A stretch of 64,000 bases of DNA, taken from NCBI GenBank assembly GCA_963675745.2, contig CAXXWX010000028.1:32001-96000 (forward strand), given 5' to 3'. Positions 21,288 through 32,200 of this stretch are shown piece after piece. Both the position numbers and the translations under genes were made by a program. Numbering within the stretch: the stretch's first letter is position 1; every line of letters begins with the position of its first letter. This stretch comes from Phycisphaerae bacterium. GTDB taxonomy: Bacteria > Planctomycetota > Phycisphaerae > UBA1845 > Fen-1342. The notes under the pieces were generated by a model. The model was not told the origin of the DNA. It worked only from the letters and a program-made list of their open reading frames with translations, and ran no database searches.

Positions 21288-24200
21288 TCAATCCGCCGAG
21301 GACTCAAATGCACCAATATCCGGCGCTGCGCCCTCGAATGGCAATCCAACATCGACACCGGCGTCGACCAGCGGCGCGCCGCTCGGCGTCAGTGCCTGTT
21401 CAACCTGCTCGAAAAGCTGATCCAACGTAATCGTCCGTTGCTCAAACTCATCCGCCGCGGTCAAGGCCGCCGACTTGTTTAGCCCCGGGTCGCCGTAGAT
21501 GGACGCCGCGCCTTCATTGGGCGGCATATCACGCAGCACACCGTCGGAGTCCTTCCAGAGATTGTGGTTGGAGGAATCGAACGTGTGCGTGCTGCGCCAG
21601 TCGTAGCTGAACAAGCCGTCAATCTCGTGATGGTTGTCGAAGACACAGTTGTTTAGGTAGGTGCCCTCATCCATCTGGATTCCGCAGCCACTACCAGCGC
21701 CGCCACAGTCGAAGATAGTGTTGTTCACGACTTGCACGCCCGGCGAATTCGAGATGCGAATCCCCATCATATCCGCCGCAAACGCCACTGACTTTTCGAG
21801 TTTGTTTCCACTGCCATAACCATGCAGGCCGATCTTGTAGCCGTTGCCGTCCGTGCCGGGCAGGTTGCCCCACACGATACACTCGCTGATCGTACTGTCC
21901 TTGCAGTCCTGCATGCCGATGTTCATGCCGTTGTCGTAAGCGACGCACTTCCGGATCGTGATCCGCTCGGTATGTCCTGCCGTGGAGTTCGTCTTCCACG
22001 AGGCCACGATTCCCTGCGCCCAAGCCAGGTGCGCCCAACCGTTTCGATACGAGACGCACCGCTCGACCAGCACGTCCTGGGCAAAGTCGTCCGATCCGCC
22101 GAGGAAGATGCCCGAGAACCCGTTGTCGTGAGACTCGCAATCGCGGATCGTGGAGAACGTCGTACCGCCTGATCCGCCCATCAGGATTCCGTGTCCCCCA
22201 CCATTGCGCGTGACGCAACGTTCGATGTCGATGTGCGTGGAATTGGCGACCTTGATGATGTAACTCTCGGCGAACTCGCAGGTCAGACCCTGCAACGTTA
22301 CGTACTCCGCGTCTACGAGCTCGAAACAGGCGCGCCGCTGGCCACCGCCGTCCTCCGCCCCGGTCACGATGACCGCTCCCGGATTTCCGCTCTCGCTTCG
22401 GATCGTCAATCCGGCGGCTTCCGTCGCATGAATGTCGACACTCACCAGTTCCGCGTAGGTTCCAGCGAAAATGACAATCGTGTCACCCGCACCGGCAGCG
22501 TTCACCGCGCTCTGGATCGTGTCGAACGGGTTGTTGTAACTGCCCAGCGGCTGGCCCGAGTCGTACCCGGGCTGGCTCGCCCCATCATCATCCACGTAGA
22601 AAATATCTTCGCACTCGTCCAGCAATCCGTCGCCGTCCGCGTCCGTGCTGGTTCCGTTAGCTATGTCACACTCGTCGGGAATGCCGTTGCCATTGCAGTC
22701 TGAACTCGTCCCGGCGGCCAGATCGCACTCGTCTGGCACACCGTTACCATTGCAATCCTCAGCCGTGCCCTGGGAGATTTCCATACTGTCGGGCACCTGG
22801 TTGGCGTTGCAGTCGGTCTGGCAATCGTCAGGGACTCCGTCGCCGTCAGCGTCGCTGCTCGTCCCATCCGCCAAGTCGCAATCGTCGGGCACTCCGTTGC
22901 CGTTGCAGTCCTGAGCCATCCCCTGGGCGATCTCCCAGGCATCCGGCATGTTGTTCCCGTTGCAGTCAAGCTGGCACTCATCCGGCTGGCCATCACCGTT
23001 CAGATCCGCGCTCGTGCCGGAAGTGATGTCACACTCATCTGGAATACCGTTCTCGTTGCAGTCCTGACTCGTGCCGGCGGCCAGATCACATTCGTCCGGC
23101 ACGCCGTTCTCGTTGCAGTCCTGGCTGGTACCGGCGCCGATCTCGCATTCATCGGGCACGCCGTTACCGTTGCAATCCTGGGCCATCCCCTGGGCAATCT
23201 CCCAGGCGTCGGGCATATTGTTCCCGTTACAGTCAAGCTGGCACTCGTCCGGCTGTCCGTCGCCGTTGAGATCAGTGCTCGTGCCGGACGCGATATCACA
23301 TCCATCCGGAATGCCGTTCGCATTGCAGTCCTGACTCGTGCCGGCGGCGATGTCGCAATCGTCTGGAACACCGTTGCCGTTGCAGTCGGGGGTCATCCCC
23401 TCTGCAATCTCATACGCGTCGGGGACTGAATTGCCGTTGCAGTCGAGTTCGCATTCGTCAGGGATGCGATTGCCGTTGACGTCGGAACTGTCGCCTGACT
23501 GAATATCACACTCATCGGGCGTCCCATTGCCGTTGCAGTCCTGGCTGGTGCCCAGTTCGATATCAGCGTCATCCGCCACACCGTTGCCATTGCAGTCGGG
23601 GGTATCCACTTCAGACGTTTGTTCATCCCTGGGCTGCATGGGCAAGCTGTTCGGATCGGATTCGCAACTGTCGATGATGCCGTTGCCGTTATCATCGATC
23701 GCGGTGCCGGCCGAGATGTCGCAATCATCGGGCACGCCGTTACCGTTGCAGTCACGGTCCGGGTTGTCCGCGATTTCCTGAAGGTCGGCGATGCCGTTTC
23801 GGTTGCAGTCGACTGGGGCCGGCGTGTCTTCGCTGCTCGGCAGGTGAATCGGCTGCGCGTCGTTCAGAGAGATTTGGAGTTGCTTATCGCTCGACGTGTC
23901 CGTCGTGCAGCTTATCTCGCCGGCCATGCCGAACAGAAGCACCGAGAGAGTCACGGTGTGAACCCCGGCGCGCGCGAACGTATAGTAACGCTTACCGTGC
24001 GTTGACACGGGGCCGGACTCCTCCACTCCGTCAAACGTCCAACTGTAGGTACCATCGGGTAGGGACGCGCCGGTCACTGTAGAGGCCTCGGCATAGACGG
24101 TCAAGTCGCCGGGTTCGCCGACCTGCGCCGCGCCGAATTGGATCTCCGGGTACACCAGAATCGAGACAGTACCTACGTTGGATTCGTGCCGTCCATCAGA

Positions 24201-24658
24201 GGCGATGTACGTGAGTTCCGTCCACCCGGTAAACTGCGGTTCGGGCGTGAACACCACGCTGGTGTAACCGAATTCCTCCTCGACGATTTGCAATTCACCG
24301 TGGTCAGGCTGCGAGATAATCGAACCGTCACACGAGAACCGCTATCAGTAGCCAACACCGCTTCAAGCGGGAGTGCCTGCATGGTGGCAAGGCTCAGATC
24401 GGGCACAGTGAGTTCGCCGCCCGCCCCCGCCAGGTCACCCGCCGTAGTCGCACCGTTGGTGAGATCGCCCGGTCGGCCATCGAACAGGATGCTGTCGTCC
24501 AATAACCCGAGATCGCCGCCGATGACGTCAGCACCCGGGCAGCCACCCATGGTCAGTGTGGCAAGTCCGATAGTGATAATGACGCCCAGCAGGGCAACCG
24601 GGTGCGAATGGCGGGTACCGCAATCGCGCACGTTCCTCCAGCAGAGCTGATGTTGCAT
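21288..24658 (-). pseudogene. Large lipoprotein (Ig/cadherin-like + PKD-like + Cys/Asp repeats + right-handed beta-helix), split by a single-base frameshift near 24323
   Basis: Upstream frame (GGAGG RBS, ATG 24658, lipobox LTMGGC) reads ...GSRVTV. The downstream frame continues SIISQPDHGELQ...FTPEPQFTG...TYIASDG. Adding one T restores one ORF. This could be a sequencing error rather than a true pseudogene. Confidence 0.75.
22608..23810 (-). repeat. 22 Cys/Asp-rich coding repeats (DCNGNGxPDECDIxxGTSx)
   Basis: Counted directly in the translation. Units are mostly 19 aa, with shorter block-closing units. Confidence 0.95.
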
Positions 24659-24990
24659 TCTCCCGGTCCTCCAGGTTAGGTCGTGCACCCGCATATAGAG
24701 TTCAAACTGTCCGACGCCTTAGCAAACCGCTGCCGGGCTGTGGCCGATCAGTACGGGGTCATTGCCGCGCCGACCGCCTGACCTGACAAGAAACTCGGAC
24801 CTCGCGTGGATATGAATCTCGAATCGCGCGCTGCGACCGTGCGGTGCGAGAGGCACGATCTATCGGGCGGGGCTGCAAAAGCGGGCCCCACACAAAAACA
24901 GGGCAACCGTGCGCCCCCCGACTGGCGACGTCGCGAAAAATGCCGGATATTTCCTCACTGAGACCCGAAGACGCGGCGACCGGGCAATCC

Positions 24991-25001
24991 GGCTATAATG
25001 C
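24991..25001 (+). promoter_or_regulatory. Putative -10 element (GGCTATAATGC) for epsI-exosortase
   Basis: TATAAT at 24994-24999, 50 nt before the ATG at 25049. No clear -35. Confidence 0.4.
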
Positions 25002-25048
25002 CACACCCACCCAGATGGTCGGTTGTCGGAACAGAAAGGCGGCGAGGC

Positions 25049-25819
25049 ATGCCGAAGCCGGATCACGACAGAATGAGAGAGGCGGTCTCCCCCGCACATC
25101 TTTGGCCAGCGACCATCGCGGCTGTCGTGTTGCTCGCGGCAACGGGCTTTGGCAGCCGTGCGTTAAACCAGGCGCTCAACGCCCGGCCGGCGCACGCTGG
25201 ACAGGTAAACGCCGCGCTTGGCCGGGTTCCACTGGTCATTGGCGACTGGCACGGACGCGACATCAATGTGGAGCAGTCGGTGCGTGCCGCCACCGATACG
25301 GATGATCTTCTGAACCGAGAGTACATCCGCGGCAACGGTCTCGACACAGTCGGGCTTTACGTAGCTTACGGCGTACGCGTACGCGATATGATGCCACACA
25401 GGCCCGAGGTGTGTTATGTTGGCGGCGGCTGGACCCGCGAACGCGTGGAACAGATGGAATTGCCGTTATCAGACGGCAGGACACTTCCATGCCGCCTGCT
25501 GCACTTCTCTCGCGGCGGGTTCGATTCCCGCCTGCTGGTCGTGCTCAATTACTACATAGCCGACGGCGTCTTCTACACCGACGTTGATTCACTGCGCCTC
25601 CGAGCCTGGCGCGGATCGCGGAGCTTTAGATATCTACTCCAGGTTCAGATCGTGTCCAGCACAAGTGAGTTTCGCGATGCGGACGACGCCGTACAACTCG
25701 TGCGGACGTTCGCCGCCAAGAGCGTCGAGCATCTGAGGGCGATTCTCCCAAGTTTGAAGCCAGCAGAGACGGCACCCGGCACATCGGCTGCCGGGGCGAC
25801 CGATGGAGAGCAGCCATGA
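25049..25819 (+). CDS. epsI: EpsI family exosortase-associated protein
   Basis: N-terminal TM, VPLVIGDWHGRD, LNREY, signature HRPEVCYVGGGW. Coupled (ATGA) to the exosortase. Confidence 0.85.
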   Translation: MPKPDHDRMREAVSPAHLWPATIAAVVLLAATGFGSRALNQALNARPAHAGQVNAALGRVPLVIGDWHGRDINVEQSVRAATDTDDLLNREYIRGNGLDTVGLYVAYGVRVRDMMPHRPEVCYVGGGWTRERVEQMELPLSDGRTLPCRLLHFSRGGFDSRLLVVLNYYIADGVFYTDVDSLRLRAWRGSRSFRYLLQVQIVSSTSEFRDADDAVQLVRTFAAKSVEHLRAILPSLKPAETAPGTSAAGATDGEQP

Positions 25820-26718
25820 AGCGAAGCCCCGCTGCCTCCGCCCCCCCCGCGGCCCCCCGCCGTGTAACACGCCTTTACGCGGGCTCGTTCGCGGTGGTGG
25901 TAGCTGCCCTGGTTCTGAGCTATTGGCGAGTAGTGGTCCAGTTGTTCAGTGATTGGCAAAACGATGCCAACTACTCAGTAGGCAAGCTCGTGCCGCTCGC
26001 TGCGTTGTATCTACTCTGGCACGATCGCGAGCGGCTCAGGGGCGTAACGGTGGGGCCGTGCTGGTGGGGGCTGGTCCTCATTGTCGGTGGCCAGGCACTC
26101 CGCTTCGCCGGACTGCTGTTGCTCATTGAGTCCGCCGAGCGGTATTCGCTCGTAGTGACGCTCTGCGGGCTGGTGCATTTGATATTCGGCCCGGCAGTGC
26201 TGTGGAAGACGCGCTGGATCCTGGTCTTCCTGCTGCTCATGGTGCCGCTGCCGGGTCGGGTGCACAATGCGATCTCGGGGCCGCTACAGGGCTGCGCCAC
26301 GGCGGGGACGGCGTATCTGCTGGAAATCGCCGGCGTGACGGTCGCGCGTGAGGGCAACGTGCTGGTGCTGAATGACACGACGCAAGTGGCAGTAGCCGAA
26401 GCCTGTAGCGGCCTGAGAATGCTAAGTGCCTTTTTAGTAGTGTCTTATGTACTCGCGTATATCGTCGGTCGCCCCAGGTGGCAGAAGGTGACGGTGTTTT
26501 TGTCGAGCATTCCGGTGGCGATCATCTGCAATCTGGCGCGCCTGATGATCACGGCGGTGCTGTACATGGTGACGTCATCCGAGCTGGCAGAGCGTTTCTT
26601 CCACGATTTCGCCGGCGTGACGATGATGCCCTTGGCTGTTCTGCTGTTGGTTGGCGAATTGTGGCTATTGGCAAAACTGGAGGTTGCTGAGCAGCCGAGC
26701 GCGTCCGATAATACATAG
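25816..26718 (+). CDS. Exosortase (EpsH/Xrt family)
   Basis: About 8 TM segments. Cys-Arg-His triad in VAEACSGLRML, ICNLARLMIT and FFHDFAG; also REGNVL. Confidence 0.93.
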   Translation: MKRSPAASAPPAAPRRVTRLYAGSFAVVVAALVLSYWRVVVQLFSDWQNDANYSVGKLVPLAALYLLWHDRERLRGVTVGPCWWGLVLIVGGQALRFAGLLLLIESAERYSLVVTLCGLVHLIFGPAVLWKTRWILVFLLLMVPLPGRVHNAISGPLQGCATAGTAYLLEIAGVTVAREGNVLVLNDTTQVAVAEACSGLRMLSAFLVVSYVLAYIVGRPRWQKVTVFLSSIPVAIICNLARLMITAVLYMVTSSELAERFFHDFAGVTMMPLAVLLLVGELWLLAKLEVAEQPSASDNT

Positions 26719-26832
26719 AGGCCATCAGTCCGTTAAACGCCGCCCGCAATGCCCGTCAGGCCGGTACGGCAATCGCCGCAACATCAGATTATTTCAGGAT
26801 CTGCGTTCTCAAGCACCTCTCTCAGATCCGCC

Positions 26833-26861
26833 TTGACTTTCGCCCCGTTATGGAATTGAAT
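26833..26861 (+). promoter_or_regulatory. Putative sigma70-type promoter for ORF 26920
   Basis: TTGACT-N17-TTGAAT, about 60 nt upstream of the GTG start. Confidence 0.35.
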
Positions 26862-26919
26862 AGACAGTGGAAAGGCCGATGTCTTTGTCTGCGCAAATGC
26901 GCGGCGATGAGGGTGTAGG

Positions 26920-27498
26920 GTGCGCAAACCGTTGTTGTTGGTGGTGGTTGGCTTCGTGTTGGTCGGCGTGACGACCGCACAGGCTGGCTTTGCGCCGACG
27001 CCGCACTTCACGCCGAAAGACAACGGCAACACGCCGGCCAACAAGCTAACCCCGACCTTGCTCGGCCAACCGCTTGGCGAGGGTTCTGGTCTTGGCGCCT
27101 ATCAGCCCGTTGCGGACGGCTCGGCATACGCCGCTCGCGATGAAGGTTCCAGCCAGATTCGGGTACTTCCGCCCGCACCAGAGAGCGCCGCGCTGTGTCT
27201 GTGGGCGCTGAGCGGTCTGGGCGCATGGCGTCTCGGTCGCAACGCGCGGCAGATGCACCTGAACGCCGTTCCTGAGTGGTATGCACGGCACGCGCCACAG
27301 GTCGGCTCGACGAAGCCGTTTGATTTTGTGACCGGCTTTGAGTTGCTGGTCTTGCCGGAGTGCCTGGCAGCAAGCGTCACGATTGACAGCGAGCCCGCGC
27401 CGCCCGTTCGGTGGCGGGATCGTTTGCCTCAAGATCGCATTCACACCCGAGATTTCCTCGTGGACAAAGATCCACGAGGCCCCCCCATCGTTCACTGA
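26920..27498 (+). CDS. Secreted/membrane protein with internal PEP-CTERM-like segment and C-terminal PRGPP motif (candidate arrest peptide)
   Basis: Signal peptide MRKPLLLVVVGFVLVGVTTAQA, internal VLPPAPESAALCLWALSGLGAWRLGRNAR, ends DKDPRGPPIVH. Confidence 0.7.
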   Translation: MRKPLLLVVVGFVLVGVTTAQAGFAPTPHFTPKDNGNTPANKLTPTLLGQPLGEGSGLGAYQPVADGSAYAARDEGSSQIRVLPPAPESAALCLWALSGLGAWRLGRNARQMHLNAVPEWYARHAPQVGSTKPFDFVTGFELLVLPECLAASVTIDSEPAPPVRWRDRLPQDRIHTRDFLVDKDPRGPPIVH

Positions 27499-27640
27499 GT
27501 ACACGTGGTTCGCAGTTGCGGGCCATGTTGGGTCGCGAAGCGCTGCTGTCAGGCGTTTTGCGGATCTTAGTGAACCAGCGCCACGGCCGCAGTTTTTTGC
27601 CTTGAAAGGTCGGGCGCGATGCTAGTGAGAATTATTAGTC

Positions 27641-28144
27641 ATGCGTAACGTGTATGCGGCATTAATGGCCATCAGTGTCGTCGCAGTCGCGTCGGGCGAA
27701 ATGAGCGATATTCGCCTGCGTGTCGCGCCGGACGCCGGCCTGGTCGCGGTTCGGGTTGAAGCGTCAGTGACGCCGACCCCCATCCTTTATGCCGGTAAGC
27801 TGGACGCGCCGTTGGCGTCTGACCGGTATGATTGGCGAACCGGCGGCACAGATCGGAATACCGGCTTCGGCACCGCGACCGGCGACCAAGCCGGGCGTTT
27901 CGCGAGGGATAGAAGCAGGTGGCTACCTGCGAATCTGACGGCGGCTTCCAGCAGCGCAATCGACGGCGCATCAGACGGTGCCAATTCGGCAGCGGGGTAT
28001 GCGTTTGGAAACACAGTGGGTAGTCAGATGCGACCGGCGAGCGGAATCGCTTTGCCGGTGCGATCAGTGCCGGTGCCGGGCGCATCCCTACTCGGTGTGA
28101 TTGGTCTCGGTTTGGTTTTGCGTTTGCGACGCCCAATCGGATGA
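27641..28144 (+). CDS. PEP-CTERM-like (VPVPG variant) exosortase substrate
   Basis: Signal peptide. C-terminus SVPVPGASLLGVIGLGLVLRLRRPIG = Pro motif + TM helix + Arg cluster. Confidence 0.82.
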   Translation: MRNVYAALMAISVVAVASGEMSDIRLRVAPDAGLVAVRVEASVTPTPILYAGKLDAPLASDRYDWRTGGTDRNTGFGTATGDQAGRFARDRSRWLPANLTAASSSAIDGASDGANSAAGYAFGNTVGSQMRPASGIALPVRSVPVPGASLLGVIGLGLVLRLRRPIG

Positions 28145-28209
28145 TCTGGAGCAATCTGAAGCAATTTTCCCCGCCGCGATAGTCGGCGGGTTTCAAGGAG
28201 TTAACGACG

Positions 28210-28902
28210 ATGAGAACTTTCGGAATAGCAGCGGTCGTGATCGCAGCGGCGATGTTCGGTTCGACGGCGATGGGCGATCTTGCGTCAATTACCTTCGACC
28301 TCATGGATGCCGATTACAATGGCGCCGGCGCTTTCACGCTCAATGCTGAGCAAGATACGTACGGCGAAGTATCGCGCATCGTGCCTGTGGCCGGACAGGC
28401 GAAGTACGACAACGACGTAGCCAACGGCTATGTCGGCAGTTGGTTCAACCTTGGCACGTCGGCCGGCGTGGCGGTGAGCATGAGCATCTCCAACATCACG
28501 GCAGCCACTGCGGATGGCAGTGGCTCGTTCACCGTGATTGACGCCGACGGAGACACGATCACCGGTAATTTCAGCGGTACGTGGCTGAACCTCGGCGGAG
28601 CCGCAGCATTTGCCGGCAACGCCAGCAGCGTGTTCTTCAACGACATTACCGCGGCGGATACGACGTTTGACGGCCCCAGCGGCGGCAATTTCAGCACGAA
28701 TTTCGCGGCCGCTCAGCCGTTTGGCGGTTGGGTCATCGACCTCACCACCAGCGGTTGGTTCGTTGATGCCGGCGGTGCCGCGCGGCCGTATTCCAATATG
28801 AATACGCACTTTGACGTACGGGTCATCCCGCTGCCGGGTGCGGCACTGCTGGGCATGATCGGTTTTGGCGCTGTATCGTGGGTGCGTCGTCGGTTGGCGT
28901 AG
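28210..28902 (+). CDS. PEP-CTERM-like (IPLPG variant) exosortase substrate
   Basis: AAGGAG RBS, signal peptide, Thr/Ser/Asn/Gly-rich beta-type body, C-terminus VIPLPGAALLGMIGFGAVSWVRRRLA. Confidence 0.9.
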   Translation: MRTFGIAAVVIAAAMFGSTAMGDLASITFDLMDADYNGAGAFTLNAEQDTYGEVSRIVPVAGQAKYDNDVANGYVGSWFNLGTSAGVAVSMSISNITAATADGSGSFTVIDADGDTITGNFSGTWLNLGGAAAFAGNASSVFFNDITAADTTFDGPSGGNFSTNFAAAQPFGGWVIDLTTSGWFVDAGGAARPYSNMNTHFDVRVIPLPGAALLGMIGFGAVSWVRRRLA

Positions 28903-28938
28903 CTGACTGACACCCTCGTATTGCTGTACTGCCTTTTA

Positions 28939-28983
28939 AACCCGCCGTCGGGCAAACATGATTCCCGGCGGCGGGTTCTTTGT
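28939..28983 (+). terminator. Intrinsic terminator after the PEP-CTERM genes
   Basis: 14-bp stem AACCCGCCGTCGGG / CCCGGCGGCGGGTT (one G-U pair) followed by CTTTGT. Confidence 0.7.
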
Positions 28984-29255
28984 GCGCCTGCCGCCGTGCC
29001 GCGGCACGGCGGAATCCGAAAGCCACGCACCTGGCACGCCGGACCTTTGGCCGGCAATTCGCGCTTCCTGACCAATCGGATCTGACATTACCGCAATAGA
29101 GGAATAACCCAACGGGCGCGCCCACGCGGCCGGAGCATCCGGTTGCCAAGGTCAGACATCGCCGGATAACATGACACGTTGTTGTTTCTTTCGCGCACGT
29201 CGGGTGAACACACGCAGGCGGCCGAGCTGCCTCGGTACCAGATAGGGATCAACTC

Positions 29256-32200
29256 ATGAACACGGCGATTCGATCCGGCCGGGTGAATATCAGGCTGGTT
29301 GTCATTCTCGTGGGCATCCTCGCGGTGATAGGCGTGGCCGGCTTCATCGCACACCGGGTTCGCAAGCAGGCAATTGCAAGTGACGCCCTGACCAACGGGC
29401 GCGCGGCGATTGCGGCCGAAGACTGGGCGCTGGCCACCAAGGAACTCCTCAGGTACTTGTCGAAGTTTCCCGACGACGAAAGCCACAATGGCGCGGTCTT
29501 GAAGGAGTATGCCGAAGCACATATGGCGGTACGCCCGCTGGATCCGACCAATGTCGGTGCCGCGATTGGTGCATATCGGCGGATTATCCGGGTGTACCCG
29601 GATCCTGAACATGTTACTCCGTCATTGCGTGAGCTGACGCGGCTGTATGAGTACATCGGAGACATGGCGGAGCTGGCGTACACGGCGCGCCGGTGGAAGC
29701 AGTTGGACGAGAGCAGTGCGGCGGCACGCCTGGTGCTCTGCCAGGCACTGGTCGCGCAACGGAAGTACGACGATGCTCTCCCCGAACTTCATGAGCTGAT
29801 CTCCATGCTCGAGGACGACCCGCAGCATCCGACGGAGTACGTGGACGCCTGTTTGCTCGTCGCCGCGATAGCGGCCGAGGCCGACCTCGATATATCGCGT
29901 GCCGACACGCTGGTCTGGATCAACCGCGCGCTCGACTATGCGCCGAGCTCGGCACGTGCGCTAATGACTCGGGCACGCTATTGGCTGGCACCGGTGGATG
30001 GCGTGGAGCCGTCGTTGATCGCGGCACGTGCTGATCTGGAGAGCGCCAGTGAGCTGGAGTCGCTGGAGCCGGCGGCACTGGTTGCGCTATGCCAGCTCTG
30101 GACCGATCTCGGTGAGTTTGAGCGTGCCGACGCGATTCTGGCGCGGATCCGCGCAGTGTCACCGGAGACGGTCGCAGCGAGTTTCATTGATCCGGACGTG
30201 TGGGCGCCAACGTGTTTTAATGTGGCGGCGCGTCTGGCCAGATCGCGCGGGGACACGGCAGCCGCGCTCCAGTTGGCCGACAGCGCACTAGCGCCAACCG
30301 AGCCGGACGCCGCGAAAATAGTCCATGCGCGATACCGTTTGATGGCACTGCCGCGCGCGACCGAGGTATATACGACTGCGGGCGATCTGGAAAAGGGCCG
30401 CCTGTGTCTGAATGAATATCTTGCATTAACCGCCGGCCGTGATCTCACGCCGGCCACCGAAGACGCCCTAGCGGTCTTGCAGGCGCGCGTTGCGCGCGCG
30501 GAAGGTGACTGGCGCGCGGTGATTGAGCTGCTGCGTCCGGTCGCCACGCGCGCTCCCGACAACGTCGATGCCTGGTTGCTGCTATCGGAGGCGTATGCGA
30601 GCACGAACCAGCATGGACGCGCGATTGAGGCGTTGCGCACCTATCTGGATGCGCGTCCGACCGACCGCAACATGACGTACAACCTGGCCGAGTCGTTTTT
30701 CAGGCAACGGTTGTTCGCCGAAGCTGAGCTCAACGCGCGGCGTGCCGAGGCGCTGGGAATCGCCGACAAGATAGCCACGCAGCTTGGCATGTGGGGGGCG
30801 CCGCCGCGGCTGCGAATAACGGCGAGCCTGTTGGATCATGATGATCCGGCCGTGGCGCTGACGGACGCCGGCGTCGCATCGTCACCTGAGGAAGGCGCCG
30901 ACCTGTTGCGGATTGTGCCGCCAATCGACATTGATTGCCGCCTGCTGCAACTCGAGTCGCGGTTGGAGTTGGCGCTGCAGCGCAACGACGTTGAGGCCAT
31001 CGCCGCGCTCAGGGGTGAATTGCGTGACCTGCGCGACCAATACCCGGAGCAGGTCGACATCAGCTTGATGCTGGCGCGTCTGCTGACGCGTGACCTGAGA
31101 CAGCAGCCGGATCAGACCGAACTGGTTGCGACCATTGAGCGGAATCTCCAGCAGGCGATCGCCACCGCGGATGACGACTTGCCGGCGCGGCTTGCCCTGG
31201 CGCGTTTCTATTCCGAACCGCGTTCGGGCGAATCCGAGCAAGATGCACAGGCGCGCCGTGAGAAAGCGCTGGCCACGATGAACGACGCGTGCGCGGCGCA
31301 CCCGGAAAGCACCAACGCCTGGCTGGTGTTGGCTCAGCTCGAGGCTGACATGGTCGACGATGATGCGGCCAAACTCGCCGCCGTCAGGCGTGTTTTGCAG
31401 CCGAGGGTGGAAGCCACTCAATCAGCGACGGACAAGAGTCGCCTGGAAATCGAGCTGGCGGCATTCGAGATCGGTTTTGGTGACACGGAGGCGGGCATTC
31501 TCAGGCTAAAACAGCTTGCCGATGCCGACCCGCTCGAACTGACGGCCCGCTCGCTGCTACTGGAGATCGAGGCGGTCCGCTCGGCAGCCGTAGCAGCGCT
31601 GCCCGAGGGCTATGCCCAGCGCCTGGTCGACGAAATCCAAGCGATAGAAGGCGATAGCGGAGTTCTCTGGCGTTATCACCAGGTCGCGGTTTGGATGGCC
31701 AACGAGGGGTGGTCTGAACATTCACACGATATCGAGAGTCTGCTGTCTTACTGCATGCAGGTCGACGGAGCCTGGGAGGCACCGGTTGTTTTGCTCGGCG
31801 AATACTACGAGCGCAGCAACGAGGAGGACCGGGCCATCGACCTGTACCGCCGCGCGCTACGCAAAAACCCGGGGGCGGCAGTGCTGGCGGATCGTCTGCT
31901 GGTGCTGCTGGAGCGCCTGGGGCGTTATCCCGAAGCTCAGGAGATTCTCGAGCAGATTCGGCTGCGCGCCGGCGCCGCTGACGCGGCTGAGATCCTCGAT
32001 GCGGTTGACGCGGGCCGTATCGATGAGGCGATCGAGAAGCTTACGTTCAGGGTGCGCGGGGCGCCGGACGACGCCGGCGCGCGCATCGGGCTGGCGCGTT
32101 TGATCTATCAATCCAAGCGTGACGCAGTCACGGCACTGCGTCTGCTTGATGAAGCGGCGTCGCTGGATCCGGTCCGCGTGGGGTCTGTCGCGGCGCGTGT

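Follow-up and report, generated by a model that had tools for sequence, protein, structure and literature searches.

The window analysed here is a stretch of 64,000 nucleotides from a Phycisphaerae bacterium. The genes listed in Table 1 lie within an exopolysaccharide cluster that encodes a Wzz/ParA-type chain-length protein, a sugar transferase, glycosyltransferases, Wzy and a flippase. The flippase gene is followed by the genes for EpsI and an exosortase, a leader open reading frame (ORF), two tail-bearing genes (cargo 1 and cargo 2), and the genes for a large TPR protein and a Wza-type export protein. The placement of this ORF between the exosortase and two PEP-CTERM-like genes is as an earlier note on this DNA had described it. 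Its two landmarks, a terminal P-R-G-P-P and an internal segment resembling a sorting signal, are likewise present in the sequence. The leader starts with GTG, has GAGGG 6 nt 5' of the start, and its ribosome-binding site forms a duplex of -6.1 kcal/mol with the 16S tail. This genome holds a single copy of it.

A scan for consensus promoters and terminators finds nothing convincing at the leader and does not report the weak promoter-like element given in Table 1. The hexamer CTTGAC is found 5' of 39 of 121 family leaders versus 4 of 132 downstream control stretches. Two RNA runs (X1, X2) give short contigs on cargo 2 only and none on the leader, and are uninformative about expression or co-transcription. 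A contig of run X3 is identical to the window over 24500-30000, and the window itself may come from it. The exopolysaccharide cluster also contains, in opposite orientation, a gene (21288-24293, minus strand) for a 1001-aa protein that has a beta-helix and numerous Cys/Asp-rich repeats of the form 'DCNxNGxPDxC'.

Table 1. Features of the leader locus in the window (positions counted from the first nucleotide of the window).
Feature	Position	Strand	Basis or remark
EpsI-type exosortase-associated protein	24998..25819	+	TIGR02914, 47.8 bits against a cut-off of 42.8; PF11984
Exosortase, subtype co-occurring with the leader family	25816..26718	+	TIGR02602, 149.8 bits against a cut-off of 105.55; PF09721
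Possible sigma-70-like promoter of the leader, weak (TTGACT, 17 nt, TTGAAT)	26833..26861	+	read from the sequence
Leader ORF, 192 aa, predicted ribosome-arrest peptide	26920..27498	+	sequence, homologues
Sec-type signal peptide, residues 1-22, ending AQA	26920..26985	+	read from the sequence; model helix 3-19
Internal sorting-tag look-alike, residues 82-110: PxP, weakly hydrophobic helix, basic cluster	27163..27249	+	alignment; model helix 89-109
Conserved P-x-W-Y-H...Q-[IV]-G-H...D block, residues 118-135	27271..27324	+	alignment of 133
Semi-conserved Cys148	27361..27363	+	34-40 residues before the arrest Arg; 102/133
P-R-G-P-P, predicted arrest motif	27472..27486	+	R 130/133, P-P 132/133; stop three codons on
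Predicted 10-bp stem, 27490-27499 with 27566-27575, spanning the leader stop and closing two hairpins	27490..27575	+	RNA folding
Cargo 1: signal peptide and VPVPG tail; atypical	27641..28144	+	sequence
Cargo 2: signal peptide and IPLPG tail	28210..28902	+	sequence
Hairpin and short T-run that may terminate the leader-cargo transcript	28939..28981	+	by eye; absent from the terminator scan

A single R[AG]PP end is not rare in random frames. Among the 48,486 stop-to-stop frames of this genome, 69 carry R[AG]PP within 10 residues of a stop and 85 carry A[AG]PP there, so that a conservation test is needed; a signal-like start is found in the leader frame only among the R[AG]PP-ending frames. As judged from sequence, the significance of the motif is a matter of conservation and not of its single occurrence. 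A word-index search retrieves 3 relatives of the leader. The full HMMER search, ranked with the whole query, retrieves 409 representatives at E ≤ 0.001, and the best 150 of these 409 were analysed. Within this set the conservation that the earlier note had proposed to test is borne out: R[AG]PP is C-terminal in 138 of the 150, with exchange between Gly and Ala, and RxPP in 145 (RGPP 116, RAPP 22, RSPP 4, RPPP 3, none 5). The motif lies 0-10 residues from the C-terminus, and 149 of the best 150 of 409 still pass after removal of the last 32 query residues. The alignment of 133 sequences used below consists of the query and 132 of the best 150, leaving out 18 that are mostly short, partial or long.

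We then pooled 106 regions fetched around matches to this alignment with 59 named loci and the window, which gives 178 matches, 153 of them unique and 148 with the stop in view. In these 148 closed frames we count 98 RGPP and 41 RAPP (R[AG]PP in 139/148), 3 RPPP, 2 RSPP and 4 other ends, with the motif at most 15 residues from the end and with a profile that includes the motif itself. A simple hydrophobicity rule gives a signal-like start in 121/132 family loci. The alignment profile matches 75/279 genomes of the order and 24/401 genomes sampled from the class; these genomes are kin, and P values are therefore overstated. The sample of 300 genomes from the phylum has one weak match (G235), which was rejected as a member because 215 residues separate the match from the end of its frame. 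All 59 named leader loci are from Planctomycetota, and those named below phylum carry the labels Phycisphaerae, Phycisphaerales, Sedimentisphaerales or Pirellulales/Planctomycetales/Planctomycetaceae. Scans of the 133 members with Pfam and NCBIfam, the window's leader among them, identify no family. The protein atlas returns scores under 0.8 only; one cluster with 35% PF07589 is a lead only. A 94%-identical version of the leader (P0002) stops at 155 aa, carries no RGPP and is either a frameshifted allele or an assembly error. A viral contig of IMG/VR (L001) has one weak match to leader residues 65-98.

Given its location in an exopolysaccharide/exosortase cluster, the ORF could also encode nothing more than a small membrane protein accessory to the exosortase system, with a structural or incidental RGPP end. 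We consider this highly improbable. RGPP is strongly depleted in Planctomycetota proteomes (mean bias 0.15; available text of PMC12992588) and yet is kept here with Gly/Ala exchange. The structure model contains two helices (residues 3-19 and 89-109) and no folded domain (mean pLDDT 66.6, pTM 0.31), and the choice among synonymous codons at the first Pro is skewed, as described below.

All parts of the leader follow a common layout: signal peptide, variable spacer, PxP-helix-basic segment, P-[ED]-W-Y-H...Q-[IV]-G-H...D, Cys-x-Phe and P-R-[GA]-P-P. The internal segment has the consensus L-P-P-x-P-x-S-A-x-L-F-L-S-A-L-x-x-x-G-A-W-Q-L-G-R-S-A-R, with P87 in 131/133, S89 in 129/133, L92 in 128/133, G101 in 129/133 and R107 in 121/133 sequences. 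Conservation thus extends to both the internal segment and the block behind it, which the earlier note had proposed to test, and P118 and W120 of this block are invariant (133/133). Spacing towards the stall is nearly fixed. The distances to the arrest Arg (5th-95th percentile) are 92-99 residues for P87, 72-79 for R107, 59-66 for W120 and 34-40 for C148, whereas the part N-terminal of P87 ranges in length from 73 to 122 residues. The ribosome tunnel holds about 35-40 residues. Cys148 would sit at the tunnel exit and the W-Y-H block just outside. From these distances and the chain lengths known from force profiles, we infer that the helix ends at too great a distance from the stall to supply the pull by inserting itself.

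The same block could be read as a sensor. In a ligand- or metal-sensing arrest leader resembling CruR, the W-Y-H...Q-[IV]-G-H block together with Cys148 would fold on a ligand outside the tunnel and pull the chain. His122 (120/133), His130 (116/133) and Cys148 are conserved at a fixed 36-62 residues from the Arg, the CXXC of CruR lies about 46-49 residues before its RAPP (PMC9426467, as available), and the PEP-CTERM protein ZepA serves zinc uptake (PMC10957091, as available). Against this reading, CxxC occurs in only 2/133 members and the window copy lacks both family His residues; the downstream genes encode 47 unrelated groups of passengers, and no metal-related family is found among the 131 cargo proteins scanned. 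We therefore regard ligand sensing as unlikely.

The shared feature of the downstream genes is their tail, since their passengers fall into these 47 groups. Among the 132 loci having at least 1.2 kb of downstream sequence, the next gene bears a VP[AV]PG-helix-basic tail in 130. In one of the two exceptions the tail scores below the cut (L123), and the other is a second copy without a tail (L071). The tail profile was built from the same downstream genes, and a plain listing agrees with it. These genes display what characterizes exosortase cargo: a signal peptide, a C-terminal motif, a helix, a basic cluster and an exosortase in the genome. The tails are a variant of the usual sorting signal, and none of 23 reaches the cut-off of TIGR02595. 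An NCBIfam cut-off is passed by 5/131 cargo proteins (XDD4, Npun_F0296, and choice-of-anchor C, L and N), two of which, XDD4 and Npun_F0296, are named exosortase-dependent; 10 more have weak matches to PEP-CTERM families and 116 have no match. In 8 loci the leader-plus-cargo cassette is repeated in tandem, 2-3 times each. At one locus (L218, G736:C55:1-12000) at least nine tail-bearing genes surround one leader, with the exosortase adjacent.

The internal segment of the leader appears to be partly a copy of this sorting tag, with a likeness to the cargo tails that is weak but non-random. The parts of both occur in the same order, and the PxP of the segment aligns to the PAP of the tails. A comparison of segment and tails with hhalign gives a probability of 31.5%, and its score is reached by 2/60 helix-shuffled and 0/60 fully shuffled profiles. 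When the segment profile is applied to non-family frames, cargo tails make up 32 of the 72 frames at 5 bits or more, though they are only 261 of 21,310 frames; none of 53 exosortase frames exceeds 2.4 bits. In the reverse direction, the tail profile finds none of the 178 leaders, and no tail appears in the top 15 matches of the segment profile in genome G000. The cut-off of PF07589 is reached internally by 1/133 members, which has P-E-P-D at that site. Two properties set the segment apart from a true tail: its hydropathy is 1.23 versus 1.90 for the tails, and it is not C-terminal, since the arrest Arg follows its basic cluster at a distance of 72-79 residues. In a divergent frame (L125:5451-6074, plus strand), 82 residues before the end, the corresponding IPAPPTS-helix segment is nearer to true cargo tails than is usual in the family and may be an intermediate.

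The genomic link to the exosortase itself is looser. The synteny proposed in the earlier note holds on the cargo side but not for the exosortase gene. Immediately upstream of the leader we find an exosortase gene in 31 of 126 loci, another cargo gene in 24 and something else in 71. With 31/126 only, adjacency to the exosortase gene was rejected as the defining link. At the level of genomes, an exosortase of the window's subtype (E below 1e-50) is present in 73/75 leader-positive versus 68/204 leader-negative genomes, while all 72 genomes of the taxonomic family carry some exosortase. This co-occurrence may just reflect the need of the cargo for the enzyme, and the 68 genomes that have the subtype and lack the leader weigh against the explanation favoured below. 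Prediction of a complex between the exosortase and leader residues 74-136 scores 0.27 against a mark of 0.32 and gives no verdict either way. The order has two exosortase subtypes separated by a clear score gap, one near-universal and the other patchy and leader-associated (window 25816-26718; G000:C3:145294-146403).

The output of a stall can be examined in the mRNA between leader and cargo. For this we used the 132 of the 148 loci in which the motif is close to the stop and the cargo begins with a signal-like sequence, leaving out the other 16; the median gap between leader and cargo is 112 nt. Our footprint model keeps all RNA as far as 15 nt from the first Pro codon single-stranded and takes the P-site position from ApdA/ApdP (PMC10951233, as available); the opening energy is that of the stretch -16..+6 relative to the cargo start. 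Its predicted median is 9.3 kcal/mol in the free RNA and 6.1 with the footprint. Per locus, the change has a median of -3.0 kcal/mol, being below -1 in 93/132 and above +1 in 16 loci. The median is still -2.5 in the 84 loci under 55% identity, and the control, 70 of 79 cargo-to-cargo pairs with a mock footprint, gives 6.8 and 6.9 with a change of +0.02. Pairing with a locus's own arm beats pairing with the arms of other loci mainly at the first Pro codon (125 loci; median z -0.68, 24 below -2), compared with a median of about 0 and 5-8 loci below -2 at 12-120 nt upstream; the z-scores of single loci are modest. The partner of the first Pro codon sits 10-20 nt 5' of the cargo start. This codon is CCT in 73/132 loci versus 19/174 for the first Pro in other Pro-Pro pairs, and CCT here creates the anti-Shine-Dalgarno sequence CCTCC. 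Pairing between footprint and start of at least 4 expected pairs is found in 63/132 loci only.

The suggestion of the earlier note that the mRNA downstream of the leader be folded therefore receives a divided answer: a switch is predicted at the level of the family, but the stem in the window misses the cargo start site. This 10-bp stem would, by the folding model, melt under a stalled ribosome, but the start of cargo 1 is about 65 nt beyond its end and stays uncovered. The window copy has 0.2 expected footprint-start pairs and the codons CCC-CCC; its ribosome-binding site ranks among the weakest 5%, and its footprint-start duplex is no better than shuffles (z +0.5). Its RNA output looks degenerate, or it uses another route. 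Such a route might be transcription attenuation, Rho-dependent as in CruR, with the same leader and at least in copies like that of the window. A C-over-G skew of +0.10 across the 90 nt that precede the Arg codon, versus -0.01 farther upstream, is in line with it, as are the long gap and the 69/132 loci without strong pairing between footprint and start. Pro-rich coding may itself cause this skew, and the start-site signal is clear at family level; we judge attenuation distinctly unlikely.

The predicted switch also bears on the idea that the leader is a constitutive tether, whose stall would keep the mRNA near the translocon or exosortase for local synthesis of cargo, without sensing any signal. 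A similar tethering role exists for SecM. A membrane anchor whose distance from the stall is fixed and the repeated one-leader-one-cargo cassettes would suit such a function. A stem that masks the start until the ribosome stalls implies two states, and the invariant block after the helix is not required for tethering, which makes a pure tether very unlikely.

Taken together, the best explanation is probably a conserved leader that precedes cargo of exosortase type, stalls its own ribosome at R-G-P-P and, in most members, is predicted thereby to unmask the start of the next gene. As its first step, the ribosome very probably would arrest with the first Pro in the P-site, by analogy to ApdA/ApdP. 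Second, and according to the folding model quite probably, the footprint of the arrested ribosome would melt the stem that joins the Pro-Pro and stop codons to the Shine-Dalgarno region of the cargo. The stall would thus turn the cargo ON and its release would turn it OFF. This direction argues against the trigger of the earlier note, in which handling by the exosortase pulls the chain free: with a stall that is predicted to mean ON, such a pull would shut the cargo off just when the enzyme is free.

A different trigger can be proposed for the third step from the layout of the leader, and here our estimate falls somewhat short of an even chance. The PxP-helix-basic segment would be a decoy tag, too weakly hydrophobic for a reliable stop in the translocon. 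Free exosortase/EpsI would capture the decoy, export would halt, the chain would not be pulled and the stall would persist. If it is not captured, Sec would go on pulling, the stall would be released and cargo synthesis would end. As a result, cargo would be made only while the sorting machine is free. We favour capture as the trigger because it would account for the PxP, the weak hydrophobicity of the helix and its fixed spacing, and because it agrees with a stall that means ON. The complete chain, an internal decoy whose capture by the exosortase holds the stall so that cargo is translated only with free sorting enzyme, is put forward as a rather doubtful possibility.

The main competitor of capture is a leader that monitors general export or insertion by Sec/YidC in the manner of SecM, MifM or VemP, its helix being an ordinary stop-transfer sequence with no exosortase role. 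A signal peptide together with a C-terminal R[AG]PP is indeed the layout of ApdA/ApdP (PMC10987492, as available), and both the weak likeness of the helix to the tails and the rarity of an adjacent exosortase gene agree with this view. We nevertheless find it rather unlikely: the downstream gene is never sec or yidC and is nearly always cargo, a stall that means ON would increase cargo under poor export, and the near-invariant PxP before the helix and the enrichment of tails among the profile matches are left unaccounted for.

Comparison with known systems places the family likely among the arrest leaders of RAPP/RGPP type, on sequence grounds, with exosortase cargo as a new class of target. 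RGPP is the strongest, EF-P-resistant arrest motif, and RAPP-like motifs alone are insufficient for arrest, according to the available part of PMC12992588. ApdA, ApdP and the RQH uORFs upstream of secA/secDF likewise have a localisation signal, a C-terminal RAPP/RGPP few codons before the stop and a stem predicted to mask the next start (PMC10987492, PMC10951233, both as available). They control the export machine itself, whereas the leader family precedes cargo of a sorting enzyme; unlike ApdA/ApdP, it adds a further helix, internal and tag-like, as well as a conserved block of no relation to theirs. In the same phylum, uA_LPPP of Phycisphaerales and related orders is also a signal-bearing arrest peptide, but it has an LPPP motif, lies upstream of secA and, on the available description, is separate from the leader family (PMC10987492). 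The small RAPP/RGPP proteins of Fujiwara et al. 2025 (PMC12992588, as available) resemble our family in being under 300 aa, exported, with the motif near the C-terminus and a target other than sec or yidC. Their targets are TonB receptors, YcnI, PCu(A)C, PepSY and DsbA/thioredoxin in place of exosortase cargo, and the words 'exosortase' and 'PEP-CTERM' are absent from the text of that paper and from 10 of its supplementary files.

CruR, a DUF2946 protein of Bordetella, is likewise exported, has a conserved sensor motif at a set spacing, ends with RAPP three residues before its end much as the leader does, and keeps downstream genes on by stalling (PMC9426467, as available). It differs from the leader family in having CXXC and in acting by Rho termination, where we predict a start-site switch (PMC9426467), and DUF2946 has no match among the 133 members at E 0.05. 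The PEP-CTERM/exosortase system shares the plan of the cargo and the clustering with EpsH, EpsI, a TPR protein and exopolysaccharide genes (PMC1569441, as available). Its control by PrsK/PrsR/sigma-54 is transcriptional and, in the available part of the same paper, limited to Proteobacteria. The leader loci depart from the classic system by their VP[AV]PG tail variant, which is below model cut-offs, and by the predicted control through a leader peptide. The earlier note knew of no described arrest peptide linked to exosortase, and our literature search likewise found no paper connecting arrest peptides to exosortase/PEP-CTERM; subscription papers, bioRxiv supplements and figure images, among them the ranked gene lists in Fig. 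4 of PMC12992588, could hold one.

The force-sensing arrest peptides known so far monitor Sec or YidC and induce the machine that they monitor. If our reading is true, the force-sensing principle would extend to the cargo of a protein-sorting enzyme, and the leader would serve as the substrate by which a sortase-like enzyme is monitored, feeding forward to the cargo rather than back to the machine. Processing by exosortases is largely inferred, and a leader-reporter fusion would be a simple genetic read-out of tag engagement. The family also provides about 150 natural variants with fixed spacing for the study of RGPP stall release, a point left open in the available text of PMC12992588.

In the genome of the window, 2/7 tail genes lie behind the leader; 5/7 are without one, which also weighs against the favoured explanation. 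The passenger domain of cargo 2 has relatives among other cargo genes (best E 5.7e-26). Cargo 1 is the shortest of the 132, has a weak ribosome-binding site and no clear relatives. A mini-ORF of 9 codons (27619-27648, plus strand) overlaps its start, with a binding site of -6.2 versus -3.5 kcal/mol for cargo 1. This mini-ORF could provide translational coupling to cargo 1, or it could be a remnant of an older start.
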